Part shown: piece by piece, positions 2,673 through 59,887 of the stretch
Numbering within the stretch: the first letter of the stretch is position 1
Layout: the number at the start of each line of letters is the position of its first letter
From: an uncultured Nitrospiraceae bacterium
GTDB taxonomy: Bacteria; Nitrospirota; UBA9217
Reading direction: 5' to 3'
Length of the DNA stretch: 64,000 nt
Assembly: GCA_964447405.1 (NCBI GenBank)
Contig: CAYUSP010000003.1
Coordinates: 384,135 to 448,134, forward strand
Translations under genes and position numbers: made by a program
The notes under the pieces: generated by a model
Database searches by the model: none
What the model was told of the DNA's origin: nothing
The model's input: the letters and a program-made list of their open reading frames with translations, nothing else

Positions 2673-2712
2673 TATAGGATTTCCTCCTTAAAATTATTCG
2701 CAGTTAGAGTGT

Positions 2713-3891
2713 TTACTTCACTTCACCTGGTGCCCAGAACACATAGGGATTCGTCCTCGGCGCCTTTACCATCTGCGGCACGGGCGGCAGACCGGTGAAT
2801 TCGAGCATGGATCTCATACCAATGCGGTCCACCAGTTCACCAATACGCTCGCGGTTCTTGCCGGACTCATCCCACCACTCCCACAGCTTGCGGATAAGAC
2901 CTTCGAGGTTGTCATAGGGCGCTTCAAGCTTCATGAAGGGCACAATAACCCAGCTCATCAACGCGCCGGTCACAATCGGGGCCTTGCCGCCGAGCATGAT
3001 CGTTGCACCCTTCTCCTTGCCTGGGCGGAGGGCCTTCGACATCTGGTTGATGCAGTGCATGCAGCGGTTGCAGTCCTTGTCATTAATCTTGAGCGCACTG
3101 CCGTCGAAGCTCATGCACTTGGTCGGGCACATATTCACGATCTCTTCCTGGATGTTCATCTTAGAGGCATAATTCTTTACTTCCGCCTGGTCGATGCGGA
3201 TGTTGTCTCTCCAGGTGCCGATGATGGACATATCGGCGCGGGCCACTGCTGCGGTGCAGTCATTGGCACAACCGGACACTTTGATCTTAAACTTGTACGG
3301 GAACGCAGGGCGATGGAGCTCATCTTGGAATTTATGGGTCAGCGTATGGCAGATCGACATGGTGTCGATGTTTGAGTACTCGCAGCGAGCCATGCCCACG
3401 CAGGAACTCGGTGTGCGGAGACAGGAACCGGATCCGCCAAGGTCCCAGCCCTTTGCAGTGATCTCTGCGAAGATCGGCTCAAGCTTATCGGTCTGTGTAC
3501 CGAGCCATATGATGTCGCCGGTTGAACCATGCATGTTCCACATGCCGCTGCCGTGCTTTTCCCATATATCGCAAAGTTCTTTCAGGGCTTTGGAGGTATA
3601 GAAGAATCCGGATGGCGGGTTGACGCGAACTGTATGGAAATGGGCCACGCCGGGGAATTCTTCGGGCAAATCACAGTAACGGCCGATAACACCGCCGCCA
3701 TAACCGAGGACACCGACGATACCGCCGTGTTTCCAGTGGGTGATTTTGTCCCGGTACGATCTCTCCAGAATTCCGAGCAGATCCTGCGCTGTGTTGCTCT
3801 TCTTTGCGGCCGTTTTAATCTCTTTCACAAAACTGGGCCATGCGCCTTTTTCAAGGTCATCAAGCATCGGTGTTTTTACATCTTTGCTCAT
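2713..3891 (-). CDS. dsrA: Dissimilatory sulfite reductase alpha subunit
   Basis: 392 aa with DsrA hallmarks: HWKHGGIVGVLGYGGGVIGRYCD, NMHGSTGDII, DLGGSGSCLRTPSSCVGMARCE, ferredoxin-like CPTKC...CNRCMHCIN, C-terminal NPYVFW. Confidence 0.92.
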   Translation of the reverse strand: MSKDVKTPMLDDLEKGAWPSFVKEIKTAAKKSNTAQDLLGILERSYRDKITHWKHGGIVGVLGYGGGVIGRYCDLPEEFPGVAHFHTVRVNPPSGFFYTSKALKELCDIWEKHGSGMWNMHGSTGDIIWLGTQTDKLEPIFAEITAKGWDLGGSGSCLRTPSSCVGMARCEYSNIDTMSICHTLTHKFQDELHRPAFPYKFKIKVSGCANDCTAAVARADMSIIGTWRDNIRIDQAEVKNYASKMNIQEEIVNMCPTKCMSFDGSALKINDKDCNRCMHCINQMSKALRPGKEKGATIMLGGKAPIVTGALMSWVIVPFMKLEAPYDNLEGLIRKLWEWWDESGKNRERIGELVDRIGMRSMLEFTGLPPVPQMVKAPRTNPYVFWAPGEVK

Positions 3892-40668: not shown

Positions 40669-42141
40669 TTAAAAATCCAGCGGGCTCTTCAGCTCTTTAA
40701 TGGTCTTGCTCGGCACGCAGTGAGTGTAAATCATGGTGGTCCGCACATCGGCATGCCCGAGTAGGGTCTGGATCGTGCGGATATCGTAGTTGGCCTGGAG
40801 CAGATGGGTGGCAAAAGAATGACGAAACGTGTGCGTGGTTACTCGTTTTGTAAGCTGCGCTTTCTTCACGGCAATATACAGTGCGTCCTGAAATCGCGAC
40901 TCATGCACGTGGTACCGCCGCTTTTCCTTGGATGATCCGATGATTGTCAGTGATTCCTGGGGAAAGAACCATTGCCATATAAATTCCTTGGCCGCGTTCG
41001 GGTATTTCTTTTCCAATTGGTCTTCTAGAAACACGCCAGCGTATCCTGCGGCAAGGTCGTCAGCATGCTGTTTTTTCACGAACGCTCGTTGGGCGAGCAA
41101 TTCAGGCGCTATCCTGTTCGGCAGGGGCACTGTTCGGCTCTTACCGCCTTTTCCCTTAATGGTGAGCAGTCCCGAATCGAAATTAAAATCCTTCACACGC
41201 ACTTTCACCGCTTCAAAGCGACGCAAGCCACAGCCGTACTGCAGCTTGGCAATGAGCTGATAAGGCTGTCCCAGTCGTGCAAGAACCTCCTGTATCTCAT
41301 CGCGTGATAGCACAACAGGAACATAGGTGGATTTCTTCGCTCGTGGAATGTCCTTATGATCGCCGAAATCTCTTTTGAGGATGTGCCTGTACAGAAACAG
41401 CAGGGCATTAAATGCGAGATTCTGCGTCGACGAGGACACCTTGCAGCGCACCGCGAGATAAGTAAGGTAACTCTTCACGTCCTGCGGCGAGAGCTGCACC
41501 GGATCTTTATGTGACAAATAGCACTGGAATTTCCTGGTCCAGTTCGCATAATGCTGCAGCGTTTTCTTGGAGTAATGCCTCATCTTGATCTCATCTACAA
41601 GCAGACTGATGATAGTATCCCATGCAGGATACCCTGACTTTCTCAGGCAGCGCCAATCATCATACCGCCCTTGGCGACGCTCGCTGCTTCCAGTAGAGGT
41701 TGGAGAACCGGGCGGTTCGCACATCATAACGGCATCTTTCGTTGCTGCCGATAGCAACGAGCCTTGTTCACGCGTCTGCTCGGAATTACCTCGAACAACC
41801 GCATTATTAACCCTGCCATCACGAATCGATGAAGGAGCAGTCTGTTGCTTTCGTTGAGCAGCGAAGAATAGGGATACTGAGGACGCCGCCTGCTCCACCA
41901 GCACTTCTGGCTGCCCCTTGGATCGGAGTTTTTCAGAGAACAGCCTGACTTGAACCGATCTTTCCTCTGGCGGTGAATACTTTGCCTGAAAATCCAGGAA
42001 ATACCTGATCCATTTCCGGTATTCATTACGCGCAAACAGAGGAATATTGTGCGTTTTTAGAATTTCATCAAAACGAGCGAGGATTTCTGGAGGTATGCCC
42101 TTCATATCGTCGTCCTTTTGTTTCCTATCAGATAACTGCAC
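40669..42141 (-). CDS. intI: Integron integrase (tyrosine recombinase) with N-terminal extension / duplicated SAM-like domain
   Basis: Box I LQYGCGLRRFEAVKVRVKD, IntI-specific insertion (QLEKKYPNAAKEFIWQWFFPQ...RRYHVHESRFQDALYIAVKKA, cf. IntI1 [21 protein letters not shown]...RRHHMYDQTFQRAFKRAV), Box II HTFRHSFATHLL, LLGHADVRTTMIYTHCV; divergent from an attC-bearing array. Confidence 0.9.
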   Translation of the reverse strand: MQLSDRKQKDDDMKGIPPEILARFDEILKTHNIPLFARNEYRKWIRYFLDFQAKYSPPEERSVQVRLFSEKLRSKGQPEVLVEQAASSVSLFFAAQRKQQTAPSSIRDGRVNNAVVRGNSEQTREQGSLLSAATKDAVMMCEPPGSPTSTGSSERRQGRYDDWRCLRKSGYPAWDTIISLLVDEIKMRHYSKKTLQHYANWTRKFQCYLSHKDPVQLSPQDVKSYLTYLAVRCKVSSSTQNLAFNALLFLYRHILKRDFGDHKDIPRAKKSTYVPVVLSRDEIQEVLARLGQPYQLIAKLQYGCGLRRFEAVKVRVKDFNFDSGLLTIKGKGGKSRTVPLPNRIAPELLAQRAFVKKQHADDLAAGYAGVFLEDQLEKKYPNAAKEFIWQWFFPQESLTIIGSSKEKRRYHVHESRFQDALYIAVKKAQLTKRVTTHTFRHSFATHLLQANYDIRTIQTLLGHADVRTTMIYTHCVPSKTIKELKSPLDF

Positions 42142-43244: not shown

Positions 43245-43307
43245 GATTTTAACCTGCGCCTCGACAGCGCCGCGCTAAAAAGCGGCGCGTCAGGCGCGTG
43301 GTTAGTT
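43245..43307 (+). mobile_element. attC site 1 (family A)
   Basis: tTTTAACCTGCGCCTCGACAGCGCCGCGCTAAAAAGCGGCGCGTCAGGCGCGTGGTTAGTT. Confidence 0.75.
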
Positions 43308-43339
43308 TTTCATTTTTTAAACTTACTGAGGGTGTGTAC

Positions 43340-44605
43340 ATGCGACTACTATCTAGTCTTTTAATGGTAATCATTAGCATCTGTGCGCAACAAGTCGCGG
43401 CCTCTGAGTCGCTTACCTGGGTTGGGCCTATTACGGTAATATCTGACAAATTTGAGCAATCCGGCGGAATATTTGGGTACACTCATACTCTCGACCAAGG
43501 TGATTGTTGCTGCGGTGGGCCAGCTACAGAAGATCGGTATCCAGATCAAATCAGGGTTGATGAAAAAGGCAATATCGCTGTCGGCGATAGATGGCATCAC
43601 ATGCACCCCGATGCAAAAATTCGTGTTTTCAATTCAACTGGTAAACTCATGTCATCATTCTCACAAACGAAAGAAGGGTGTACAAGCGGAGGCTATCTTT
43701 GGCCGGGGCACATGCAATTGCGAAACAACAAGATAATAGTAGAAACGGGAAACTGTGCTCAAGTATACAATTATGACGGCAAGTTGTTATGGCATCTCGG
43801 TCGAAGTACTAATAGTTATCCGGAATTAAAGATGGTTACAGAAGACAGAATAATTTTTAGAAAATATCTTAAAGACCCTTTCGGGAAACTAGAGTCAGAG
43901 CGCAAGGATATTCAAGCCGGGTGGTTAATATATAGCTTAGACGGAAAGCTGATTGAAGAGAAATTGAACTTTGAATTACCGCAACGAAAAGAAGGGGTCA
44001 ACGTCGTCGATGGATCAAGAGTCTATTCAAATGTTCTAAAAGCGACCGGCCGTTATGGTTTCAGAATCGACAAAAACAAGAATTTAATAGTTTTTAGAGT
44101 CAATGAAAAACCTGACGATTATGAACAAATACACTCGTTTCCTGCTGGGACACTTGATATTTATGATTTATCTTCGAAATATATTTATACGATTGTATTA
44201 CCACAAAATGAGTATTCACAAAACAGATATTGTGGGGAGGGCGCATTTGCAGGTAAAGATGTAATAGCTGAATATGGCGAAGCTAAAGAAGTCGATATCA
44301 ATGGGAATATCTATCTCACCTTATTCCTTCCAACGGAACTCAAGATTATTAAATGGATTCCTTTATCCTTAAATAATCCTCTGCCAGTAGATACAATTTC
44401 TAATCTAGATAAGAAAGCGTTGCGCATTCTAAGAAATGAAATTTATGCTCGAAAAGGTCGAAAGTTCGAATCAAAAGATCTTGCTGATTTATTTTCAAAG
44501 CAGCCATGGTACACTCCGATAGATAATTACAGTGATCATTTATTATCGAAAATTGATAGGGACAATATTGATGCAATATTCGAAATCGAGCGAAAGAAAA
44601 GATAA
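43340..44605 (+). CDS. Cassette ORF: secreted protein with C-terminal YARHG-like domain
   Basis: Signal peptide MRLLSSLLMVIISICAQQVAASE; C-terminal NEIYARKGRKFESKDLADLFSKQPWY resembles the YARHG domain; GDCCCGG motif. Confidence 0.55.
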   Translation: MRLLSSLLMVIISICAQQVAASESLTWVGPITVISDKFEQSGGIFGYTHTLDQGDCCCGGPATEDRYPDQIRVDEKGNIAVGDRWHHMHPDAKIRVFNSTGKLMSSFSQTKEGCTSGGYLWPGHMQLRNNKIIVETGNCAQVYNYDGKLLWHLGRSTNSYPELKMVTEDRIIFRKYLKDPFGKLESERKDIQAGWLIYSLDGKLIEEKLNFELPQRKEGVNVVDGSRVYSNVLKATGRYGFRIDKNKNLIVFRVNEKPDDYEQIHSFPAGTLDIYDLSSKYIYTIVLPQNEYSQNRYCGEGAFAGKDVIAEYGEAKEVDINGNIYLTLFLPTELKIIKWIPLSLNNPLPVDTISNLDKKALRILRNEIYARKGRKFESKDLADLFSKQPWYTPIDNYSDHLLSKIDRDNIDAIFEIERKKR

Positions 44606-44613
44606 ATTGAAGA

Positions 44614-44674
44614 TTTACTAACCAGGCGCTCGACGGCGACGCGCCGAGGTCGGCGCGTCAGCGCCGCGTTAATC
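44614..44674 (+). mobile_element. attC site 2 (family A)
   Basis: TTACTAACCAGGCGCTCGACGGCGACGCGCCGAGGTCGGCGCGTCAGCGCCGCGTTAATC. Confidence 0.75.
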
Positions 44675-44704
44675 ACGATATATAACAAGGTTCAGAGGTA
44701 ATTC

Positions 44705-45151
44705 ATGTCAGAACATCCTTTCAACTGTCCTAGCTGTAAGCAAACATACCCAATTTTCAAGTACAGTATCGGGATGAGCGACATCCTCGAATTGCGTTGC
44801 AGTAATTGTGCAACGTCGTTACATATCGATTTATATGATCCAATAATGCTCGACCTTTATAAGAAATACGGTCAATATACAGGCGGGTTCTTCGAGAACC
44901 TATACAATTCATTAAAGCCTTGTCGTTGTGGTGGCCAATACCTCGCCGCAGCTGCTTATCGTTGTCAAAAATGCAACATTGCTGTCTCATTGGACGAAAT
45001 AAAAAAGCAGATTGGTTATAAAGGAAACGGTACTCCCGGAATAGCAATGGCCAATATAATCAATTCATCTGATACGAAGGATAACATCTGGAAAAATCCG
45101 GAGGACATCAAACCGATAAAGCGATGGTGGAAGTTTTGGCAGAAAACTTAA
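44705..45151 (+). CDS. Cassette ORF: Cys-rich (4x CxxC, double zinc-ribbon-like) hypothetical protein
   Basis: CPSCKQ...CSNCAT...CRCGG...CQKCN. Confidence 0.5.
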   Translation: MSEHPFNCPSCKQTYPIFKYSIGMSDILELRCSNCATSLHIDLYDPIMLDLYKKYGQYTGGFFENLYNSLKPCRCGGQYLAAAAYRCQKCNIAVSLDEIKKQIGYKGNGTPGIAMANIINSSDTKDNIWKNPEDIKPIKRWWKFWQKT

Positions 45152-45153
45152 AA

Positions 45154-45212
45154 TATTAACCTGGCGCTCGACAGCGACGCGCCAAGGTCGGCGCGTCAGC
45201 GCCGTGTTAGTT
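45154..45212 (+). mobile_element. attC site 3 (family A)
   Basis: TATTAACCTGGCGCTCGACAGCGACGCGCCAAGGTCGGCGCGTCAGCGCCGTGTTAGTT. Confidence 0.75.
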
Positions 45213-45227
45213 TGAGATGGAGCATAA

Positions 45228-45854
45228 ATGAAATTTATAGAATATCGCGGACAATTTCGTCTTCTTTTCCCTCGCTATGACGAGCTTGTACTATTTACGA
45301 TGAGTTTAACCTGCCTACTTCTTATGATCACTGGCGTACTATCGCATATACCAGAAATTGGAGCGGTATCCCTGAGACAACTTGATCCTGGATTTTTTGT
45401 TCCTTTCATTTTTATAGCAATATTCATAGCCGGCCTCGTGTTGTCCTTATACCATGCATTCGTTGATCGCCCTAAAACAGAGATCGAAAAATCGTTTATG
45501 TTGTTTTTTGCCGTCTTAGTTAACGTCTTCAGCGGGTTCATGGGTAGTGGTTACAGCCTTACTACAGCCAGTGGTTGGTTTATAGTTTTTCCCGTTATCA
45601 ATATGATCAATAGCATGATTCTTCTCTTTATGTGGCGATATGGGTACTTTGACGAAACAAGTATTAGCGATCAACAGGCATCAAGAGGTCAAGTCATGCT
45701 TGCAGGGACAATAGTTTTAATTCTGTTTTATTTATGTCACGTTGTTTACGAATTCTTATGGATACAAACGCTATCTGTTTGTCTTGTTTATTCAATAAAC
45801 TTTATTAGACTGATTGAATCATTGATTTTTCGACCCGTACCGATTTCTAAATGA
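45228..45854 (+). CDS. Cassette ORF: polytopic membrane protein, unknown function
   Basis: 208 aa with about 6 hydrophobic helices. Confidence 0.5.
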   Translation: MKFIEYRGQFRLLFPRYDELVLFTMSLTCLLLMITGVLSHIPEIGAVSLRQLDPGFFVPFIFIAIFIAGLVLSLYHAFVDRPKTEIEKSFMLFFAVLVNVFSGFMGSGYSLTTASGWFIVFPVINMINSMILLFMWRYGYFDETSISDQQASRGQVMLAGTIVLILFYLCHVVYEFLWIQTLSVCLVYSINFIRLIESLIFRPVPISK

Positions 45855-45864
45855 CTGCATAATG

Positions 45865-45925
45865 ATTCTAACCATTCGGCTCGAGAGGGTCGCGAAAACC
45901 GCGCCCCTCAGCCGAGCCGTTATCT
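45865..45925 (+). mobile_element. attC site 4 (family B)
   Basis: TTCTAACCATTCGGCTCGAGAGGGTCGCGAAAACCGCGCCCCTCAGCCGAGCCGTTATCT. Confidence 0.7.
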
Positions 45926-45984
45926 TCATAGATTGTTCTACGTGACTGACGAATTCTGATTTTGCATAAGGAAAAATTCAGCTT

Positions 45985-46875
45985 ATGGTGCACCGTACAG
46001 CGTTCATTGTCATTTTGACCCTATTCTTATTTCCTTTCGCCGTACACGCCCGAGATGATTTCAAAATGGCCAATCTTGTTTATCCTTCCGAGAATCAAAT
46101 TACCCAAGCCCAGCTGACCCCACTAACAGCAGTAGAGTTGAAAAAAGAAATTCAGAACTCAATCGAGTTGCCAACCGAAAACTGTTTAGATCACGTCAAA
46201 ATGAAAATCGAGGACGATTCTATTGAGGAGTATCTATGGGGTTTTTATAAGTATGATTTTTCAGGCGATGGAATCGATGATTTGATATTTATCAGCTATT
46301 GTGGTGGTGAAGAGTATCAAAACTTTATTTGGATAAAGAAAGACAACAAATTCTATTACAGTGGCCTCCTATGGGGTACGATTGTCAAATTGTATCGTGC
46401 CCAAGACTTGAAAGCCTTATCGGTCGTAACGCGTGGCGGCTGGTGCTGTAGCGGCTATGTCGGATACATTAACCTGTATACACCTTCAAGCAATAATCAA
46501 GTCACAAAATATTCCTTAGAGAAAAGCGTCCGAGAATTCGGTGGCATTACATTGCCGGATAAAAGAATTCCCGCTAAGCGGTTCGTTGTGAAAAACGATA
46601 AATACAAACTGCGGGAACAGCCTATTATTAATGATAAGTATGATGAGCAGGAGAGTGAATTTGAACGCAGACCTGTTTATGGGAATACTTTGGCAGAATT
46701 CGTTAAGGGAAGCAAAGGCGAAGCCATTGCTGAAAAAACTGACGAAACCGGGCGGGTTTGGTGGTTCGTCATCATGGACCCAGATGCTAAGGCCACCTAT
46801 AATAGATTTTACGGCGATCAAAAAGCTTCAAAAGCCGGCTGGATGAGTTCAAGGTTTTTAGAAATGACGAAGTGA
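45985..46875 (+). CDS. Cassette ORF: hypothetical secreted protein
   Basis: Signal peptide MVHRTAFIVILTLFLFPFAVHA; 296 aa; stop overlaps attC. Confidence 0.5.
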   Translation: MVHRTAFIVILTLFLFPFAVHARDDFKMANLVYPSENQITQAQLTPLTAVELKKEIQNSIELPTENCLDHVKMKIEDDSIEEYLWGFYKYDFSGDGIDDLIFISYCGGEEYQNFIWIKKDNKFYYSGLLWGTIVKLYRAQDLKALSVVTRGGWCCSGYVGYINLYTPSSNNQVTKYSLEKSVREFGGITLPDKRIPAKRFVVKNDKYKLREQPIINDKYDEQESEFERRPVYGNTLAEFVKGSKGEAIAEKTDETGRVWWFVIMDPDAKATYNRFYGDQKASKAGWMSSRFLEMTK

Positions 46876-46931
46876 TAACCTGGCGCTCGACAGCGACGCG
46901 CCAAGGTCGGCGCGTCAGCGCCGCGTTATAT
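46873..46931 (+). mobile_element. attC site 5 (family A)
   Basis: TGATAACCTGGCGCTCGACAGCGACGCGCCAAGGTCGGCGCGTCAGCGCCGCGTTATAT. Confidence 0.75.
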
Positions 46932-46962
46932 GGTAATAAAAAATACCGACTCCGGAGATGAA

Positions 46963-47238
46963 ATGGAATTAACAAAACAAGAGCGAAAGTTCGCTGAATT
47001 ATCAACTAAACGGTATCGCGGTTTATTGTATCGAAACAGCCAATTGATCGGATGGGTCGGTGTTGTTCTCTTTGGGCTCGGCTTACTGCGGATATTGCCA
47101 GTATCTGCTACCGTTCAAAAATTACTTCTTCAAGGTGGTTTTTTTCTAATCGTAATGAGTACAATTATGTTCGCGATGACTATTATAAGTAAGCTTTACA
47201 CCCGTAATCAGGAACTTGATCGATCGCGACCGGATTAA
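46963..47238 (+). CDS. Cassette ORF (first of a two-gene cassette): small 2-TM membrane protein
   Basis: GGAG RBS; MELTKQERKF...two hydrophobic helices. Confidence 0.45.
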   Translation: MELTKQERKFAELSTKRYRGLLYRNSQLIGWVGVVLFGLGLLRILPVSATVQKLLLQGGFFLIVMSTIMFAMTIISKLYTRNQELDRSRPD

Positions 47239-47275
47239 GACGTAATGGTAAAGAAAACTTTTGCGGGAGGGAAAT

Positions 47276-47737
47276 ATGACCACTAAGAACGTTCGTGCAA
47301 TCGGTTTTTTACTTCTCCTGATATTTATTATCTCCCTCTACGCCTTATATCTGCTTACCCAGGACAAAACTCCTGAAAATTACCTTTTCTTTGGGTTTAC
47401 TTCTCTAACGTTTATCATCATATATTCAATCAGCATTTTAAATTACAAAATCACAGGTTCTAGTATCGGTATCGAAGTTGAACAAGCACGACAGGAGATC
47501 ATGACTTCAAAAAAGGAAATTGAGACACTAGCGAATACCTTGATCAAGGTGAGTTATGTCATTGCAGATGGGTCTAGCAGGTTTGGCGGCATGCCAAAAG
47601 AACATCAAGATAAGATCAGGGAATATCAAAATTCAATAAAAACATTTCTTGATCAAAACATTGACGAGGAAGTCAAGAAGACCATCTCTGGTTTAAATGA
47701 AGCAATAGACCTGCGAATTAATAAAGACAAGAAATAG
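47276..47737 (+). CDS. Cassette ORF (second of two-gene cassette): membrane-anchored coiled-coil protein
   Basis: GGGAGGG RBS; MTTKNVRAIGFLLLLIFIISLYALYLL then a helical soluble domain; no attC between it and the previous ORF. Confidence 0.45.
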   Translation: MTTKNVRAIGFLLLLIFIISLYALYLLTQDKTPENYLFFGFTSLTFIIIYSISILNYKITGSSIGIEVEQARQEIMTSKKEIETLANTLIKVSYVIADGSSRFGGMPKEHQDKIREYQNSIKTFLDQNIDEEVKKTISGLNEAIDLRINKDKK

Positions 47738-47744
47738 CGAGATA

Positions 47745-47804
47745 CAATAACCTGCCGGTCCACAGCGACGCGCCAGAAGGCGGCGCGTGACCGGCGCGTT
47801 AGGT
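47745..47804 (+). mobile_element. attC site 6 (family A)
   Basis: CAATAACCTGCCGGTCCACAGCGACGCGCCAGAAGGCGGCGCGTGACCGGCGCGTTAGGT. Confidence 0.75.
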
Positions 47805-47813
47805 AGGTAAAAT

Positions 47814-48353
47814 ATGAAGAAAAGAATAATATTCTTATTTGCCGCAATCCTTCTTATTTCTTCTTACAGTCAGGCCGAATCTCGTATAAACTTTCCCACA
47901 TATATCCCTGGTAAATATAGACCCTGTCTCGAAGCGTGGCTATCAGCCCATCCATCATATCGTATTGCGATCGAAACAGATTGCACGTATTGCGATAACA
48001 GCATCAAAGACATGAGAACGAAACCTTATGGGGATTGGAAACCTTTACCTGATTATCAACCCTATTTTACAGTCGGTGATTTCAATTCGGATAGCGTTGA
48101 TGATTTTGCCGTTGCAGTAATAGACGAACTCAAAAGAGATAAGAAATTCCGCATCCTGGTCTTTAATGGCCCTTTCAATACATCATCTCTTTCAAAGCCG
48201 GCTTTTGTATCTGGTCCGATCGATTTAAGCAACGCAGGCATGTTCTACGGAGGCCCTCGACCGAAACCATGGAGACTATTAGCTGGGCCGTTTGAGTCTG
48301 AAGGAACCTTGCTGGTGCCTCAAGGAAAAACATATAAGTGGGAAAGTAAGTAG
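47814..48353 (+). CDS. Cassette ORF: hypothetical secreted protein
   Basis: Signal peptide MKKRIIFLFAAILLISSYSQA. Confidence 0.5.
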   Translation: MKKRIIFLFAAILLISSYSQAESRINFPTYIPGKYRPCLEAWLSAHPSYRIAIETDCTYCDNSIKDMRTKPYGDWKPLPDYQPYFTVGDFNSDSVDDFAVAVIDELKRDKKFRILVFNGPFNTSSLSKPAFVSGPIDLSNAGMFYGGPRPKPWRLLAGPFESEGTLLVPQGKTYKWESK

Positions 48354-48358
48354 TCTGA

Positions 48359-48418
48359 ATCCTAACACTCGCGTCGAGAGGGTCGCTAAAAAACGCGCCC
48401 CTCACGCGCTCGTTAATT
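48359..48418 (+). mobile_element. attC site 7 (family B)
   Basis: ATCCTAACACTCGCGTCGAGAGGGTCGCTAAAAAACGCGCCCCTCACGCGCTCGTTAATT. Confidence 0.7.
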
Positions 48419-48456
48419 CTGGATAGCATCTCATTTTCATCGCAAGCTTAAAATAT

Positions 48457-48885
48457 ATGGAAATAATAAACGGCAAAATATTGACCCGCGAACAAATAGA
48501 TTCGATTAGTTCAACAATCCGAAAAGCTTATTTAGCACTTGTATGGTTTTCTGGGATCGATCTTGCCTTTAATATTTTCAAAGTTGCTAATCCTCTTTCA
48601 CACGGCGGGATTATGGAAGCGGGGCTAAAATTCGCTGAATTTATCATCATATATCGTGGTTTAAAGATTCGAGCATCTTGGCTCATTCCTTTAGTGTTAA
48701 TCTCCTCGGTTTATACGCTGTTTAGTGCTTTCTTTATTTCAATGGAGCCTGCAAAAGACATTGCGGAAATTATAGCTAAACCAGTAGGCATGTTGTTGGT
48801 CGTTTTTTCTGTATATCAACTTATATTTTTTTCAAAGACTGAAGTCAGGTCATCATTTGGTGCGAAAGGATTTAATGTTTTTTAA
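48457..48885 (+). CDS. Cassette ORF: hypothetical membrane protein
   Basis: 142 aa, about 3 hydrophobic helices. Confidence 0.45.
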   Translation: MEIINGKILTREQIDSISSTIRKAYLALVWFSGIDLAFNIFKVANPLSHGGIMEAGLKFAEFIIIYRGLKIRASWLIPLVLISSVYTLFSAFFISMEPAKDIAEIIAKPVGMLLVVFSVYQLIFFSKTEVRSSFGAKGFNVF

Positions 48886-48912
48886 CTGCTCTGATCAATA
48901 AAGTAATATGAT

Positions 48913-48970
48913 AATTAACCTGCGGGTCGAGTGAGTCGCGAAAAGCTCGCTCCTCACCCGCGTGTTAGTG
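48913..48970 (+). mobile_element. attC site 8 (family B variant)
   Basis: AATTAACCTGCGGGTCGAGTGAGTCGCGAAAAGCTCGCTCCTCACCCGCGTGTTAGTG. Confidence 0.7.
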
Positions 48971-49087
48971 CTTAATAATGCCCATTCCAACTTGGACAGA
49001 TTTTTTGTTAAATTCAGAGTGTGGTTTTCGCTATAAACTTTTGAATTTGCACTTGGTCAGCTACGAATTCATTTGTGGGGCTATAAC

Positions 49088-49513
49088 ATGAAAATAATAC
49101 TTCTATTGCTATTGACTTTTTCGCTATTCACATCGATTGCATTATGTGCAGGCAAAATAGGTCAGTTAGGCCTGTTTGATTCATCTTATGATCGTACTGT
49201 TTGGCAATATGTGGAATCTTCAGGGGGTGTAGACATATTTGAGCATAGGTTCTTAAAGAACTGTAATTTATATTCAGCGGTCATTACGGAAACATTTGAG
49301 GAAGAGGCTAAGAGGACTGAAGCTTTATTCGAAGGCAAGACTTACTACGTAACGAAAGGCCTTAAAGATGGCAAATTAATTTCATTATACTATTGTAAAA
49401 AAGGTTCTCCTTTTCAATGTCTTCGGGTATATGTTGCCAATGTTAGCGATATCAATGCATGCACCCAAGCCTCGGAAAAGGTAATTATCGACTACGAGCG
49501 AAGAAATAAATAG
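49088..49513 (+). CDS. Cassette ORF: small secreted Cys-containing protein
   Basis: Signal peptide MKIILLLLLTFSLFTSIALCAG; a 118-bp spacer lies between attC8 and the ATG. Confidence 0.5.
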   Translation: MKIILLLLLTFSLFTSIALCAGKIGQLGLFDSSYDRTVWQYVESSGGVDIFEHRFLKNCNLYSAVITETFEEEAKRTEALFEGKTYYVTKGLKDGKLISLYYCKKGSPFQCLRVYVANVSDINACTQASEKVIIDYERRNK

Positions 49514-49570
49514 CCTAACGTATAGTTCGAGAGGGTCGGGCTCGGCCCGCCCCTCAACTCGTTGTTATTT
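49513..49570 (+). mobile_element. attC site 9 (family B)
   Basis: GCCTAACGTATAGTTCGAGAGGGTCGGGCTCGGCCCGCCCCTCAACTCGTTGTTATTT. Confidence 0.7.
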
Positions 49571-49582
49571 CCGTGAGGAACA

Positions 49583-49807
49583 ATGGGTAACAGACGCGAT
49601 TCATTTCCGTTTCGATATCCTCAACTGTTTCACGAATGTTGGCATTGCCATACCGTAGGGCTGAAGCCGGGCATCCTTGATACAAAGCATGGTGATTACG
49701 GCATGCGAAAAGTATTTAAGGATGAACCAGAATTGCCGCTAAATTCTGAAGGTCTCTGTTTGGATTGCGCAGAACAATTAAAGACCAAGAAAGAGGATGC
49801 CAATTGA
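49583..49807 (+). CDS. Cassette ORF: small zinc-ribbon-like protein (CWHCH...CLDC)
   Basis: 74 aa; HECWHCH and GLCLDC motifs. Confidence 0.45.
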   Translation: MGNRRDSFPFRYPQLFHECWHCHTVGLKPGILDTKHGDYGMRKVFKDEPELPLNSEGLCLDCAEQLKTKKEDAN

Positions 49808-50169
49808 AGCAAACCAATTTTCTGAAGATCTGCTGGCACGACGGAAATATCGTCGATTTTAGATACATCTTCCCAATTACCAAAAGAGATAGGCCCTGCA
49901 TCATCATTAAAGCCGAAGTTTATGCGAATTATATTAATGCTGCTCATAGGCATTTGATCCAAATTGAATTTCCAAATATTCAAAACATAGATAAGAAGGT
50001 CAATTTTCCTGAAATTAAAGATAATGTGGTCGCAGGGTCAATCAATTACGCTAAGCCAAAAGAAATCGTAAATAGCCTTGGTACTTTTCAAGAATACACA
50101 TTCACTTTGTTTGGTGGCAAAATCAAAATCGTTTCAAACAAAGCCAAAATAAAGAAAATTATGAAATAA
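49765..50169 (+). CDS. Cassette ORF: hypothetical protein overlapping and likely translationally coupled to 49583-49807
   Basis: Open +1 frame; possible starts ATG 49765 (43-nt overlap) or TTG 49804 (TTGA start/stop overlap); no family. Confidence 0.4.
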   Translation: MRRTIKDQERGCQLKQTNFLKICWHDGNIVDFRYIFPITKRDRPCIIIKAEVYANYINAAHRHLIQIEFPNIQNIDKKVNFPEIKDNVVAGSINYAKPKEIVNSLGTFQEYTFTLFGGKIKIVSNKAKIKKIMK

Positions 50170-50222
50170 CCTGGCGCTCGACAGCGACGCGCCAAAGTCG
50201 GCGCGTCAGCGCCGTGTTGTAA
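50165..50222 (+). mobile_element. attC site 10 (family A)
   Basis: AATAACCTGGCGCTCGACAGCGACGCGCCAAAGTCGGCGCGTCAGCGCCGTGTTGTAA. Confidence 0.75.
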
Positions 50223-50238
50223 AGCAAAAGGAATCTAT

Positions 50239-50979
50239 ATGACCTATCGACAAATAATGTTATTTTTATTAGTGGCGACCCAACTTACGCTATCAAGCTG
50301 CGCTACATACTATGCACATGAGAGCATTCAAAATTTACCCAAATATGATCCTTCGAGGTTTCCCTATCTCATTGAAGGTGAATATTTAGAAGTAGCCAGT
50401 CAAGGGAATATATCATTTCAACACTACTACTTCCCGACTTTCCCATGGCCCGCATGGCATGGTCAACACATGCACTTATTTCTTTCGGAAACGCAAACAG
50501 AACCCATCGTGATTAATATGGATAAGCGCTTATCTGTAAAAGAGCCAATAATCTACTTTTACAAGGAAAGCAAGCGAACTCTCATAATAGATAAGACAAA
50601 TAGCGTCAAAAGCAAAGCACTCCTCTACGTATATCACCAGTCAGGAGAGGTGGACCTCAAAGATATTATCAAGAATACAGCCACTCAAGCTTTAGGTTCA
50701 GATAATGAAGTTCCTCTTGTGACACTTTCCTATAACAAAAATGGTGAGCAATCCATCTTCTCTGTTGGAAAGATAGTACGTCATGGCGGTTTGATTGAGT
50801 CACCTACCTTGAAGGGACTTTACATGCTTCATACTAGCCCTTATCAAAGCCGATGGAGACATCCACTTGATTATTGGCTTTATATCGTTACGGTCCCGGG
50901 CGATGTAGTTACCTCTCCATTACAACTACCATTCTGGATTTATACGTATTATCAAAACAGAGGATTGTCACCCAAATAA
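50239..50979 (+). CDS. Cassette ORF: hypothetical lipoprotein
   Basis: Lipobox LTLSSC after the N-terminal hydrophobic segment; 246 aa. Confidence 0.5.
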   Translation: MTYRQIMLFLLVATQLTLSSCATYYAHESIQNLPKYDPSRFPYLIEGEYLEVASQGNISFQHYYFPTFPWPAWHGQHMHLFLSETQTEPIVINMDKRLSVKEPIIYFYKESKRTLIIDKTNSVKSKALLYVYHQSGEVDLKDIIKNTATQALGSDNEVPLVTLSYNKNGEQSIFSVGKIVRHGGLIESPTLKGLYMLHTSPYQSRWRHPLDYWLYIVTVPGDVVTSPLQLPFWIYTYYQNRGLSPK

Positions 50980-51043
50980 GGCTAATATTATTAATCACTA
51001 TTTAGGATCGGGTAGCGAGTAAATCATAATTTTGAAACAAAGG

Positions 51044-51100
51044 ACCCAACATGGGGATCGAGAGCGGCGCGAAAGTCCGCGCCTCATCCCCGTGTTGTCA
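51044..51100 (+). mobile_element. attC site 11 (family B)
   Basis: ACCCAACATGGGGATCGAGAGCGGCGCGAAAGTCCGCGCCTCATCCCCGTGTTGTCA. Confidence 0.7.
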
Positions 51101-51122
51101 ACTCAACACAAAGGAGGTTCAT

Positions 51123-51473
51123 ATGCATTACGTCGATGGATTTGTGATACCGTTACCGAAGAAAAACCTGAAAGTATATACCCGAATGGCCAGGATGGGA
51201 AAAGAGATGTGGATGAAGCACGGCGCCATCGATTATAAGGAGTGCGTTGGAGAGGATTTGGAGAGGACGGGGGGGACGACTTTTTCACGACTGATGAAGT
51301 TGAAGCCCGGCGAGACCGTGGTTTTCTCATGGATCGTTTACAAGTCCCGGGCGCACCGCGACCGCGTCAATGCAAAGGTGATGAAAGAGATGGAAAAGAT
51401 GAGCCTGGAGGAGATGCCCTTCGACATGAAACGCATGGTGTATGGCGGTTTCAAGGTCCTCGTTGACATATAG
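51123..51473 (+). CDS. Cassette ORF: DUF1428 (YbaA-like) family protein
   Basis: AAGGAGG RBS; MHYVDGFVIPLP...GETVVFSWIVYKSRAHRDRVNAKVM...MPFDMKRMVYGGFKVLV matches the DUF1428 pattern. Confidence 0.65.
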   Translation: MHYVDGFVIPLPKKNLKVYTRMARMGKEMWMKHGAIDYKECVGEDLERTGGTTFSRLMKLKPGETVVFSWIVYKSRAHRDRVNAKVMKEMEKMSLEEMPFDMKRMVYGGFKVLVDI

Positions 51474-51486
51474 TATTTCATCACGG

Positions 51487-51539
51487 AACATAACAAGCGA
51501 GTGAGTCGCGAGGAGCACGCTCCTCACCAGCGTGTTGTC
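51487..51539 (+). mobile_element. attC site 12 (family B variant)
   Basis: ACATAACAAGCGAGTGAGTCGCGAGGAGCACGCTCCTCACCAGCGTGTTGTCA. Confidence 0.7.
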
Positions 51540-51588
51540 AGTGATAAATTTGAATATTGAAAATATGACGCAGAAGAGGGAACTTATT

Positions 51589-52011
51589 ATGCATTCACCA
51601 TCTGTATCTGTGGAAGAACTGAATGACATCCTGGCAGGCACACCATTTCTAAAGCCATATGGGTTTATTGTAAAGGCATGTGCTCCAAACGAGTGCACGC
51701 TACTTGTTCCGTTTATGCCTTCGCTCGAGCGACCAGGGGGGCTGGTCAGCGGCATGATGTTAATGGGAGCGGCGGACGTCGCAATGTGGCTTGCAATCAT
51801 GACTCTTCGGGGAACGAGTGAGCGTTGGGTTACTTCGGACATGAAAACAGCATTTCTGCGGGGTGCCAAAGAGGAAGACATCCTGTGTACGGCTCGCGTG
51901 CTCAAGCCCGGAAAGCGCAGCATGTACGGCACGGCTGAGTGTCATGGTGCAACAACTGGCCTGGTAGCTCACCATGTCCTCACATATGCAAAGATTGAAC
52001 CCGCAGGATGA
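51589..52011 (+). CDS. Cassette ORF: hotdog-fold thioesterase (PaaI/YbgC-like)
   Basis: MHSPSVSVEELNDILAGTPFLKPYGF...GGLVSGMMLMGAADVAMWLAIM is typical of PaaI-type thioesterases. Confidence 0.55.
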   Translation: MHSPSVSVEELNDILAGTPFLKPYGFIVKACAPNECTLLVPFMPSLERPGGLVSGMMLMGAADVAMWLAIMTLRGTSERWVTSDMKTAFLRGAKEEDILCTARVLKPGKRSMYGTAECHGATTGLVAHHVLTYAKIEPAG

Positions 52012-52047
52012 ATACCGCGACTCGAAAACCGCCAAAAAGAAAATAAA

Positions 52048-52110
52048 TGATAACATGCGCGTCCACAGCGACGCGCCAAAGGGCGGTATACATAAATTTA
52101 AGTTAAGAGA
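52048..52110 (+). mobile_element. attC site 13, truncated (right arm replaced)
   Basis: GATAACATGCGCGTCCACAGCGACGCGCCAAAGGGCGG then unrelated TATACATAAATTTAAGTTAAGAG; lacks the GGCGCGTGACCGGCGCGTTA half. Confidence 0.5.
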
Positions 52111-52119
52111 GGTGTCAAG

Positions 52120-52824
52120 ATGACAGATAAACAGCAATTGGATCATACTTATCACTACATAATGAAAACCTTCATAGATCGAGGCAATGCACCTCACTTT
52201 ACAGAGATAGCGAAAGAGTTTGGCGTAAACCCAGCTGAAGGCAAGAAATTGCTGTATGATTTGATGAATACGGGAATGGCAATGTGGCTTTATCCCGGAA
52301 CCGACCTAATTGCTTCATTTGCACCATTCAACAATCAGCCAACTCAATATCGCATTACTGTGGACGGACAACAAAGATGGTTTGCACAATGAGGTTTTGA
52401 AGCCCTGGCGGTCTGCTGGGCATTTCCACGAAAAGCAGTGCAGATTGACGCGCCATGTTTAGATTGCGGCGAGTCTATGAAAATCGTTGTGCGCGACGGC
52501 ATCATAGAAATTGAATCGCCTATCGGCATCCATGGATATATTGACATTCCTTTAAGTCAATGGGCAAAAAACTGGCCTTTTACGTGAAGTCGCATCCATC
52601 TCTTCCGGTCGGAAGATCATGTAAAAAACTGGTCCGACTTTCGTACAGGAACTGAAGAGGCAATTCTTCCGATCTCGGATGTCATGTCCATAATGAGCAC
52701 ACCCCGTCACAGTGCTAAATTGAGTGGTCATTACATCTCATCTGCTGCGGATTATGCGCCGCTATTTTTCCAGAGACTCAGGGAAGTAACGCGAAATTCA
52801 GAATTCTGGAAGCCCAAGTCGTAG
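52120..52824 (+). CDS. merB: Organomercurial lyase (MerB)-like protein with two in-frame TGA codons at the catalytic-Cys positions (candidate selenoprotein; alternatively a pseudogene)
   Basis: Single frame from ATG 52120 to TAG 52822-52824; TGA at 52390-52392 and 52585-52587. Translation: HTH N-terminus, ...VDGQQRWFAQ-U-GFEALAVCWAFP (MerB: RRLYAWCALDTLIFP) and ...NWPFT-U-SRIHLFRSEDHVKNW (MerB: SFCCHVHFFASVPTAEDW); U-U spacing 65 aa vs 63 in MerB. Confidence 0.6.
52402..52421 (+). ncRNA. Candidate bacterial SECIS hairpin 1 (cis-element within mRNA)
   Basis: CCCUGGC-GGUCU-GCUGGG, loop GG at +18/+19 from the UGA. Confidence 0.4.
52601..52616 (+). ncRNA. Candidate bacterial SECIS hairpin 2 (cis-element within mRNA)
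   Basis: (U)CUUCC-GGUC-GGAAG(A), loop GG at +20/+21 from the UGA; the loop GGUC is identical to the E. coli fdhF SECIS apical loop. Confidence 0.4.
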
Positions 52825-52895
52825 AGGGCAAAATCTGCCGTGTACGAATAGGGATATGTAGGTCGGGTAGAGCAAGGAGAAATCTGACACAATGA

Positions 52896-52950
52896 TCCCA
52901 ACATCGCTGTCGAGAGGGTCGTAAAAAAAGCATGCCCCTCACGGCGGCGA
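52896..52950 (+). mobile_element. attC site 14, degenerate (terminal, eroded right arm)
   Basis: ATCCCAACATCGCTGTCGAGAGGGTCGTAAAAAAAGCATGCCCCTCACGGCGGCG, then diverges (no GTTGGG core). Confidence 0.45.
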
Positions 52951-52972
52951 CGGCCCACGCTTCGCGCGTGCC

Positions 52973-53057
52973 GCTGAGCCATGCGTCTGTCCCGGCAAAA
53001 AACGCGCCGGGAGAACCAGACGCTCGAAACCAATGGCCCTGCGGGTCATGGCTCAGC
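52973..53057. repeat. Nested inverted-repeat structure at the distal end of the array
   Basis: GCTGAGCCATG ... CATGGCTCAGC (11 bp perfect arms) enclosing CGTCTG..CAGACG and CCCGGC-aaaaaacgc-GCCGGG. Confidence 0.5.
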
Positions 53058-55730: not shown

Positions 55731-55869
55731 GGAACCGAACTAAACCTGCAGACCGGGTAGAGAGTAGATTAAAGCAAAGTAAGTCCTGACAACCGGTTGC
55801 ACATTGACCGCTTCGCGGCGTCTGAATTCGTTGTTGGACCGACATCACGGGAAATGCACAGGGGGGACC

Positions 55870-56841
55870 TTGAAAGCAGTTGTTCAGACCGAGTACGGTA
55901 CGCCGGATGTCATGCGGCTCGAGGACGTCGACACTCCTTCCATCAGCGACAACGAAGTCCTTGTACGCGTTCGTGCCGCATCAGTGAATCCGCCCGACTG
56001 GGCAGGCGTGCATGGGGTGCCCTACATCGTGCGCGCAGCGTTCGGGCTGCGCAGACCCAAGCTCGGCGTCAGAGGTACGGACCTGGCTGGCACTGTTCAG
56101 GCGATCGGTGGGAACGTCACACGGCTGTCTGTCAATAACGAAGTCTTCGGCGTCGGAACCGGCACATTCGCGGAATACGCGGTTGCAAGGGAAGACCACC
56201 TCGTACCGAAGCCGGCCAATATCACATTCGAACAGGCTGCCGCAACGGGGATGGCGGCGTTGACCGCACTCCAGGCACTTCGCGACGCCGGCTGCATCCG
56301 GGCTGGACAGAAAGTGCTCATTGTCGGAGCGGGCGGCGGGATCGGCACGTTTGCCGTCCAGATTGCGAAGTTACTGGGCGCACACGTGACCGGCGTATGC
56401 AGTACGTCGAAGCTGGAGCTGGTCCGCTCGCTGGGAGCCGACGACGTCATCGACTACCAGCGTGAGGACTTCACGCAGGGCAATGAGCGCTACGACCTCA
56501 TCCTCGACAATGTGCTGCGACACTCGCTGTCCGAGCTCCTGCGTGCGCTCGACCGCAACGGAACACTCGTGCCCAATGGCGGTCAGTTCTATAAGCGCTG
56601 GTTCGCGAGCACCGGCGTCCTCCTGGTCAAAGCGCCACTGCTCTCGCTGTTCGTACCGCAGCGGATTCGCATTTGCACGGAGCGCCCCGAACTGAACGAT
56701 CTGCTCGTCCTGAAGAGTCTTGTGGAGTCCGGGAAGCTGACACCTGTCGTTGGACGAACATACCCTCTGGACCAGGCTGGTGAAGCCATCTTGTACTTTG
56801 GGGAGGGACATGCCAGGGGCAAGATCGTCATCACCTTCTGA
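55870..56841 (+). CDS. Zinc-independent MDR-family oxidoreductase (quinone oxidoreductase/alcohol dehydrogenase-like)
   Basis: Start chosen at TTG giving MKAVVQTEYGTPDVMRLEDV...; NAD(P) Rossmann VLIVGAGGGIGTFAVQIAKLLGA; C-terminal GHARGKIVI. Confidence 0.7.
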   Translation: MKAVVQTEYGTPDVMRLEDVDTPSISDNEVLVRVRAASVNPPDWAGVHGVPYIVRAAFGLRRPKLGVRGTDLAGTVQAIGGNVTRLSVNNEVFGVGTGTFAEYAVAREDHLVPKPANITFEQAAATGMAALTALQALRDAGCIRAGQKVLIVGAGGGIGTFAVQIAKLLGAHVTGVCSTSKLELVRSLGADDVIDYQREDFTQGNERYDLILDNVLRHSLSELLRALDRNGTLVPNGGQFYKRWFASTGVLLVKAPLLSLFVPQRIRICTERPELNDLLVLKSLVESGKLTPVVGRTYPLDQAGEAILYFGEGHARGKIVITF

Positions 56842-59137: not shown

Positions 59138-59356
59138 CTAGCGGGCGTGTGTCCCGTCGCAATAAGGCGCGGTTTTCGTCCGCCCGCAGGTGCACAATCC
59201 AACTTTTTTCTTTTCCGTCAGCTTGAACTCAAGCGGAACCTTGTCAGTACCTTTATGCGATCCGTCGCAAAAAGGCTGGTTTCCCGACTTTCCGCACGAA
59301 CACCAATAATAGGTGCCCGGCTCCAGTTCGACCATCTTCGGCAGATTATTTCCCAT
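59138..59356 (-). CDS. CDGSH iron-sulfur domain protein (two CDGSH [2Fe-2S] motifs)
   Basis: CSCGKSGNQPFCDGSH and CTCGRTKTAPYCDGTH; start at MGNNLPK with AGGAGG RBS. Confidence 0.8.
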   Translation of the reverse strand: MGNNLPKMVELEPGTYYWCSCGKSGNQPFCDGSHKGTDKVPLEFKLTEKKKVGLCTCGRTKTAPYCDGTHAR

Positions 59357-59428
59357 GACTACACCTCCTTTCGTATCGTTCGTGCTGCACTGCGCACTAT
59401 GGGTTCCCACTACCCAAAGATTACCTGT

Positions 59429-59887
59429 TCACTCGGCACTCCGCTGCTGAAGCCCAATCTTCTTGCAGAGATCACCGAGTGTTTTCTGCTCCGTCCGGGT
59501 TAATATGCTCATTTCCTTTACGATTCTGCTGACATGGCCCGGGAAAAAGTCCTTGATGAGCCTTTCACCAGCCTGCGTTGGCCGGACCAGATAATGTCTC
59601 CGGTCCGATTCGTCCCTGACGCGCTCTACCAGCCCCCGTTTTTCGAGATTATCAATGACCATAGTCACGTTTCCGCCGCTTTTCAATATTTTGCGGGCCA
59701 GATCCTTCTGAAAGAGCGGCCCGAGATGGCATAACGCATCCAGAATGCCGAACTGGCTCACGGTAAGGCCCAGGGATGCAAAATGAGACTCTACGCGGCT
59801 CGAAACCGACTCAGCGGCCCTGACCAGTTTGATAAACGTGTTCAGACCCGACACTTCCGCTTTAGTTCCTTTGTATTTCGTTCCCAT
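59429..59887 (-). CDS. MarR family transcriptional regulator
   Basis: wHTH segment LTVSQFGILDALCHLGPLFQKDLARKIL...RVRDESDRR. Confidence 0.8.
   Translation of the reverse strand: MGTKYKGTKAEVSGLNTFIKLVRAAESVSSRVESHFASLGLTVSQFGILDALCHLGPLFQKDLARKILKSGGNVTMVIDNLEKRGLVERVRDESDRRHYLVRPTQAGERLIKDFFPGHVSRIVKEMSILTRTEQKTLGDLCKKIGLQQRSAE

Follow-up and report, generated by a model that had tools for sequence, protein, structure and literature searches.

A 64-kb stretch of DNA from an uncultured Nitrospiraceae bacterium (GenBank assembly GCA_964447405.1, contig CAYUSP010000003.1, positions 384,135 to 448,134; here called the window) carries a gene for a MerB-like protein in which, judging from sequence comparison, both metal-binding catalytic cysteines are very probably replaced by selenocysteine (Sec). 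The complete gene (52120 to 52824, forward strand) consists of 234 codons plus a TAG stop in one frame, running from an ATG at 52120 to the TAG at 52822 to 52824 and open except for two in-frame TGA codons, at 52390 to 52392 (codon 91) and 52585 to 52587 (codon 156). A Shine-Dalgarno-like sequence, presumably functional, can be read 5 nucleotides (nt) before the ATG (GAGAGGTG, 52107 to 52114). This frame, with its TGA codons at 52390 and 52585, is as given in a preliminary description of the DNA that had proposed a double-selenocysteine organomercurial lyase.

Taken as a whole, the best explanation is a 234-residue protein with the MerB fold, Sec at the positions of MerB Cys96 and Cys159, each inserted by way of its own selenocysteine insertion sequence (SECIS), and a putative role as an organometal lyase. 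We place the probability of this reading at about 85%. Under this model, each UGA would be decoded through a SECIS lying within the coding sequence just downstream, read by SelB carrying Sec-tRNA(Sec).

Conservation of the two UGA codons

Scanning one genome per species, across 185,579 species, returned 493 tblastn-confirmed stretches encoding a relative. Eighty-two homologous loci were read, consisting of the best 80 of these 493 stretches plus two loci that are the DNA of database proteins written with Trp at both sites. The codon at the second site (codon 156) was TGA in all 82 loci, and the codon at the first (codon 91) was TGA in 64 and TGC, encoding Cys, in 18. The sites were 65 codons apart in every locus, so that the spacing initially reported, 65 residues versus 63 in MerB, holds. 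All 82 frames were open and conserved to about 232 to 234 codons, with no other stops or frameshifts, and loci of the U..U form, which have TGA at both sites, share as little as 45% protein identity. Cys occupies site 1 in close homologs and both sites in distant homologs (P0156, P0157, P0198, and P0239); therefore, classical Sec/Cys pairing is seen at both positions.

The protein is under purifying selection after each UGA. The ratio of nonsynonymous to synonymous substitution rates (dN/dS) for the window gene versus its relatives was 0.08 to 0.15 after UGA-1 and after UGA-2, in comparisons with unsaturated dS. Against the closest relative, an 86%-identical copy in the Nitrospiraceae bacterium UBA6898 (locus L003), dN/dS was 0.08 to 0.12 across all three segments of the gene, including the segment before UGA-1, for which this was the only usable comparison (0.12). 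Public annotation treats the window gene as though it were a decaying pseudogene, in which the TGA codons are inactivating nonsense mutations and at most a 90-residue N-terminal fragment is made. Databases hold that fragment as a hypothetical protein, the attC-like repeats flanking the gene are degenerate, and no Sec machinery is encoded in the window, all of which would suit decay. However, the same two TGA codons recur in 64 independent loci down to 45% identity without any other stop or frameshift, they fall exactly on two catalytic positions, dN/dS is near 0.1 after each of them, and the hairpins that follow both of them covary (see below). Decay is extremely improbable as an explanation of the window gene, and for the family it is effectively refuted. 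This agrees with the preliminary description, which had thought a pseudogene very unlikely and had raised the prospect of orthologs with ordinary stops and a truncated product; all 82 loci are open through the same positions.

It is also conceivable that an alternative code or near-cognate read-through places a standard residue, be it Trp, Gly, or Cys, at the two codons, and many homologs have been translated with Trp at both sites by gene callers applying code 4 or 25. TGA nonetheless ends 24 of the 82 family genes as well as bona fide genes of the window, such as an alcohol dehydrogenase gene (55804 to 56841) whose Pfam match is complete up to the model's final position, where the gene stops at TGA. 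TGA is still a stop in these genomes, and no UGA reassignment is known in Desulfobacterota, Nitrospirota, Proteobacteria, and similar hosts. Trp at the two metal-ligand positions of MerB would be chemically senseless, and this explanation is further opposed by hairpins that lie at the SECIS position with the loop of Escherichia coli fdhF, the first of which is lost in most loci with TGC. We give next to no weight to translation as a standard amino acid.

Hairpins downstream of each UGA

The preliminary description had claimed a hairpin with a GGUC(U) loop after each TGA, and both were found on folding. Hairpin 1 (52404 to 52420) begins 11 nt after UGA-1 and has a 6-bp stem and a GGUCU apical loop; it can be extended to 52402 to 52421 with a bulged U, giving a stem of 6 to 7 bp and a folding energy of −8.9 kcal/mol. 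Hairpin 2 (52600 to 52617) begins 12 nt after UGA-2 and has a CUCUUCC/GGAAGAG stem, which spans 6 bp in the window copy and 7 bp in the consensus of the family, with a GGUC apical loop. Its energy is −7.3 kcal/mol alone and −8.0 kcal/mol in context.

Likeness to the SECIS of E. coli fdhF, also claimed initially, extends to both loop sequence and position. In fdhF, the order is UGA, 11 nt, and then GGUUGCAGGUCUGCACC. Both systems have an in-frame hairpin directly 3' of the UGA, a stem-loop of 17 to 18 nt starting 11 to 12 nt after that codon, and a GGUC apical loop. The loop begins 17 nt after the UGA at site 1 and 19 nt after it at site 2, compared with 18 nt in fdhF, and in alignment the GGUC occupies columns 21 to 24 (site 1), 23 to 26 (site 2), and 22 to 25 (fdhF), so that the loop starts agree within 1 nt. 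The differences are that stem sequences are unlike and that the family mRNA has two putative elements 195 nt apart.

A published model of bacterial SECIS (bSECIS) elements specifies an apical loop of 3 to 9 nt with a G within its first two nucleotides, an upper stem of at least 4 bp, a distance of 16 to 37 nt from the UGA, and a minimum free energy no higher than −7.5 kcal/mol (PMC13188914). Both hairpins agree with this model in loop, leading G, stem, and spacing, as does site 1 in energy (−8.9 kcal/mol), and the energy at site 2 in the window copy is borderline. Three results tell against a SECIS function: hairpin 2 of the window copy, folded alone, falls marginally short of the energy limit (−7.3 versus −7.5 kcal/mol); single-sequence folding was not significant compared with shuffled sequences (z = +0.64 and −1.47); and no Rfam family matched either hairpin, whether the whole window was searched at gathering thresholds or positions 51900 to 53000 were searched at E values up to 10. 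Because single-sequence energies are not significant and Rfam offers no match, the case for the hairpins rests on comparative data.

Across the family, both hairpins are under selection as RNA. At site 1, the 64 loci with TGA (62 distinct sequences) share a stem at columns 15 to 20/26 to 31 around a GGUCU loop, with 98.9% of cells paired, versus 14 to 60% when the 3' partners were slid by 1 to 3 columns as a control. Pair 15-31 is compensatory, being G-C in 44 and C-G in 16 of the 62 distinct sequences. At site 2 (82 sequences, 78 distinct), the CUCUUCC/GGAAGAG stem and GGUC loop had 96.5% of cells paired, and compensatory changes occurred in three pairs, from C-G to U-A in two of them (7 and 12 sequences) and from C-G to G-C (4 sequences) or A-U (1 sequence) in the other. 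One such change at site 2 alters the protein, with GAA becoming AAA (Glu to Lys) in partnership with a synonymous change of TTC to TTT. The hairpins are thus kept in homologs, with compensatory changes, a point on which the preliminary description had allowed that its proposal might fail.

Codon choice within the hairpins departs from that in the remainder of the same genes. For example, the site 2 hairpin uses CGG for Arg in 75 of 82 loci (25% of Arg codons elsewhere) and TCG for Ser in 76 of 82 (21% of Ser codons elsewhere), and the site 1 hairpin uses GTC for Val in 58 of 64 (30% of Val codons elsewhere). Third-position entropy was about 1.9 bits outside the hairpin and 0 to 0.7 bits inside it, collapsing only there.

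The site 1 hairpin also follows the identity of the codon that precedes it. All six pairs were formed in 60 of the 64 TGA forms versus 3 of the 18 TGC forms, and the GGTCT loop was present in 45 of 64 versus 2 of 18. Two loci with TGC at site 1, from Nitrospinae and Tectomicrobia metagenome-assembled genomes (MAGs; L025:4798-4842 and L033:4916-4960, respectively), retain a perfect hairpin and the GGTCT loop, and look like fossil SECIS elements left by recent Sec-to-Cys conversion. The other 16 Cys forms have no GGTCT loop, and among them L016 alone pairs all six stem positions. The natural series of C..U and U..U forms, together with these two fossil elements in Cys forms, offers a ready comparison of Sec with Cys in one protein family.

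Active site, relatives, and possible function

With Cys written at both TGA codons, the window protein matched Pfam MerB (PF03243) at 61 bits (cutoff, 27 bits; E = 1.4e-16), and it also matched the sequences of solved MerB and MerB2. Sequence and profile alignments to those two proteins placed TGA-1 on Cys96, Glu94 (52399 to 52401) on the proton donor Asp99, and TGA-2 on Cys159. A homolog profile whose site columns are mostly Trp gave the same correspondence, which is therefore independent of the Cys substitution. Fold comparison agreed. A homolog 47% identical to the window protein (P0007) has an AlphaFold2 model with a mean predicted local distance difference test score (pLDDT) of 95, and the sole significant PDB fold matches of this model were MerB and MerB2 (E ~1e-9; template modeling [TM] score, 0.56 to 0.68; ~200 columns), at 14 to 21% sequence identity in the fold alignments. 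The same comparison shows a winged-helix-like N-terminal domain. The alignment to the MerB hidden Markov model that the preliminary description had suggested thus bears out its active-site assignments, with the first TGA at Cys96, the acidic residue kept, and the second TGA, which it had left at Cys159 or Cys160, at Cys159.

MerB (EC 4.99.1.2; PDB 3F0P and 5C17) and the family have the same domain and fold, each of the two metal-ligand positions and the acidic proton-donor position has its counterpart, and the family keeps the equivalent of MerB Cys117. MerB has Cys/Cys plus Asp at the three positions, whereas the family has Sec/Sec or Cys/Sec plus Glu. The family also has a C-terminal extension of about 40 residues, no nearby merA, merR, merT, or merP, and an extra Cys within a CxxC arrangement of which MerB keeps only the first residue, Cys117. 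This arrangement is part of a CLDCG motif (52456 to 52470) in which Cys113 aligns with MerB Cys117; alignments of 15 and 55 proteins of the family showed no variation at Cys113 or Cys116. Together with Sec91, these two form a U-x21-C-x2-C pattern resembling the TRASH-type metal-binding pattern, and they are candidate metal ligands. Glu94 is likewise invariant in both alignments. The one exception seen is the closest relative (L003:5616-6317), which has Lys (AAA) at that position and whose same-strand upstream neighbor encodes an S-adenosylmethionine-dependent methyltransferase.

By analogy with the MerB structure, Sec91 and Sec156 would come together only once folding forms the active site. 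The two selenolates could there hold a soft metal or metalloid between them, possibly helped by Cys113 and Cys116, with Glu94 as the proton donor that cleaves the carbon-metal bond. The protein would then be an organometal lyase like MerB or SaoL, acting on methylmercury or another organometallic compound. Selenolates at both MerB metal ligands predict an affinity for, and reactivity with, mercury and other soft metals very different from those of a dithiol site.

Several results nevertheless speak against the functional part of this proposal. The NCBIfam MerB equivalog models NF033555 and NF009710 were not reached (19.6 versus 200 bits and 22.7 versus 193 bits, respectively). The Cys96/Asp99/Cys159 catalytic signature used to recognize MerB (PMC8261052) is kept in its positions and changed in its residues, which are Sec (UGA), Glu, and Sec (UGA), with Asp99 replaced by Glu. 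Gene context offers no help: no Pfam family occurred in more than 4 of 71 same-strand neighbors within 200 nt, neighbor clusters were shared by at most 6 loci within about 6.5 kb, and mer, hgc, and SAO genes were not found near family genes. Specifically, the Pfam families of merR, merT, merP, and merA were absent among the 71 adjacent same-strand neighbors and in the window, and no SAO components were recognized near the loci, where the SAO NCBIfam models were not run neighbor by neighbor. Finally, the great strength of Hg-Se bonds would make it difficult for a diselenolate to let go of Hg(II). Of the original label of organomercurial lyase, the fold and active-site positions stand; the failed equivalog models, the Glu in place of Asp99, and the constant absence of adjacent mer genes leave the specific activity as a prediction.

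Another possibility is that the protein is a Sec-containing member of the MerB fold that is not a lyase, serving instead in metal binding, trafficking, or sensing, or in redox chemistry through a Sec91-Sec156 diselenide, and retaining an ancestral TRASH-like site (U-x21-C-x2-C plus U156). A published account derives the MerB catalytic domain from duplicated TRASH-like treble-clef metal sites (PMC4999995). An invariant CLDCG motif of which canonical MerB keeps one cysteine, a winged-helix-like N-terminal domain, and the lack of mer context also favor this possibility, and the difficulty of product release from a diselenolate is a chemical argument on the same side. In contrast, the protein shares its overall fold and both ligand positions with the lyase, L003 alone departs from an acidic residue at the proton-donor position, and SaoL, which shares the site 2 Sec, is interpreted as a lyase (bioRxiv 10.1101/2022.07.06.499078). 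We regard a nonlyase role as possible, if doubtful.

SaoL is the closest precedent. It is a MerB-like organometallic lyase selenoprotein (NCBIfam NF040728) described by Haft and Gwadz (bioRxiv 10.1101/2022.07.06.499078; J Bacteriol 2023). Its single Sec is part of a C-U dipeptide at the Cys159 position, its gene belongs to a nine-gene SAO operon, and a 2026 review lists it as a one-Sec family. The likenesses are considerable: both proteins have the PF03243 MerB fold with Sec at the MerB Cys159 position, database entries for both routinely break off at that UGA, and both occur in anaerobes, including Syntrophobacter, with neither found in a mer resistance operon. The window protein, however, scored 40 bits against a SaoL cutoff of 140. 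At site 2, SaoL has a C-U dipeptide, whereas the window protein has T-U and its relatives have A-U or S-U. At the Cys96 position, SaoL keeps Cys, whereas most family members carry another Sec, served by a separate SECIS. The family has Glu at the position of the SaoL and MerB Asp, it has the invariant CLDCG motif in addition, and its neighbors are not conserved, whereas SaoL marks the SAO operon. By the SaoL model, motif, and operon tests, all of which failed, the family is distinct from SaoL.

Other bacterial selenoproteins with two Sec residues, such as UxxU metal-binding proteins and FmdB-family proteins (PMC13188914), resemble the family in having more than one Sec per polypeptide and in presumed metal ligation. 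Their Sec residues lie 2 to 3 residues from each other within a single motif; those of the family are 65 residues apart, each served by a separate SECIS. This arrangement, the commonest form of the family, is rare among catalogued bacterial selenoproteins.

The preliminary description had presented a Sec-dependent MerB-type enzyme as unusual. A Sec-containing relative of MerB is, as an idea, already published in the single-Sec SaoL, and the new part is the double-Sec MerB-like family. No description of a double-Sec MerB relative turned up in the searchable literature, where SaoL, with one Sec, was the only find and coverage was short of one relevant paper and one supplement. In NCBIfam release 20.0, the family matched no model beyond the subthreshold matches to SaoL and MerB.

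The family is widespread and free-standing. Most hosts of the U..U form are anaerobes, such as Desulfobacterota, Nitrospirota, Pelotomaculum, and Dehalococcoidia, and the C..U form is found in Alphaproteobacteria, Burkholderiales, Methylomirabilota, and Acidobacteriota. Two MAGs, one from Desulfobacterales (L040 and L053) and one from Syntrophobacteraceae (L054 and L059), each have two U..U copies on different contigs. The hosts belong to anaerobic groups in which mercury is methylated and demethylated, making the family a testable candidate for demethylation, and to our knowledge MerB-independent demethylation in such anaerobes is still without an assigned enzyme. One could go further and propose that a diselenolate MerB-type organometal lyase lies behind mer-independent methylmercury demethylation, or other organometal turnover, in anaerobic sulfate-reducing and syntrophic bacteria. 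We consider this proposal tentative and, on present evidence, unlikely. If it were true, two selenolates would give a far higher affinity at environmental trace levels than the dithiol of MerB.

Protein databases contain this family, which spans 493 stretches, only as stubs of 90 or 155 residues or as mistranslations with Trp at both sites. Homologs deposited as proteins fall into two classes, one of about 155 residues with Cys at site 1 that ends exactly before site 2 and one of about 235 residues with Trp at both sites. The DNA of two members of the second class has TGA at the supposed Trp positions, decoded by gene callers with code 4 or 25. Examples translated in this way lie on short metagenomic contigs (P0001, P0006, P0007, P0012, P0061, P0065, and others; loci L001 and L002), and in other pipelines the gene was shortened to 90 or 155 residues. 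Some entries are named organomercurial lyase or hypothetical protein. The 90-residue fragment of the window gene carries the latter name and has identical counterparts in several Thermodesulfovibrionales and Nitrospirota MAGs. Surveys of MerB diversity that start from predicted proteins will misclassify the family.

Integron context of the window copy

The window contains a chromosomal integron in which the MerB-like gene is the terminal cassette. The integron integrase gene, intI (40669 to 42141, reverse strand), matched TIGR02249 at 356 bits (cutoff, 265 bits) over residues 180 to 489, as well as Pfam Phage_integrase and SAM_4, and it probably begins in truth near codon 175 of the open reading frame (ORF). 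An array of about nine intact attC-like repeats (TAAC...GTTA, ~55 nt) follows at 43250 to 51540 on the forward strand, between low-GC cassettes. The GC content is about 40% in the array versus about 54% in the flanks. The cassettes encode a YARHG-domain protein, a DUF1428 protein, a 4HBT thioesterase, and several ORFs without a Pfam match.

The MerB-like gene comes after the 4HBT thioesterase cassette, between two degenerate attC copies on the forward strand. The upstream copy (52051 to 52108; repeat family D1), which marks the cassette boundary, has a diverged 3' half. The downstream copy (52899 to 52953; families D6 and D10), at the end of the array, keeps its 5' half and central stem and is without the GTT (R') box. 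The gene is therefore a terminal and probably fixed cassette, since both flanking attC copies are degenerate and the downstream one has no R' box. The initial claim that this is the last cassette is in keeping with the integrase, the attC-like array, and the degenerate copies on both sides. No integrase or attC context was found at the 82 other loci, and the integron context is specific to this window.

These surroundings raise questions about expression in this particular host. The gene has degenerate attC copies and is some 10 kb away from the array's integrase end, and neither selA, selB, selC, nor selD was found within the 64-kb window by a tRNA search and by Pfam searches of 40 window ORFs. 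The window contains no tRNA gene and hence no selC. A 620-residue GTPase considered as a possible SelB is BipA/TypA. Such facts count on the unfavorable side for decoding here and would be compatible with a true double-Sec family whose window copy is a silent, recently captured cassette, neither expressed nor decoded for want of a compatible SelB or a promoter. That the gene is last in its array, that degenerate attC copies surround it, and that other loci have no integron context would all fit such a capture. Set against this, the window copy has two intact SECIS elements that agree with the family consensus and a Shine-Dalgarno sequence of its own, dN/dS of 0.08 to 0.12 relative to the 86%-identical copy in a related Nitrospiraceae MAG argues for selection in this lineage, and identical 90-residue fragments occur in several Thermodesulfovibrionales and Nitrospirota MAGs. 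A silent copy is improbable. A cassette-borne selenoprotein works only in hosts whose Sec machinery reads its SECIS, which is an unusual limit on horizontal transfer.

A scan of 78 same-frame ORF pairs for other TGA-interrupted genes in the window, inspected by coordinates and lengths, gave none that was convincing. The most promising pair, at 59138 to 59887 on the reverse strand, a 152-residue MarR-like ORF and a small ORF with CDGSH motifs with one TGA between them, was set aside as apparently separate genes, judged by eye from the translation. The host genome is Nitrospirota- or Thermodesulfovibrionales-like. At 1599 to 3891 on the reverse strand, two adjacent NIR_SIR/4Fe-4S genes (392 and 357 residues) resemble the dissimilatory sulfite reductase genes dsrAB, which fits a sulfate- or sulfite-reducing, Thermodesulfovibrionia-like host.

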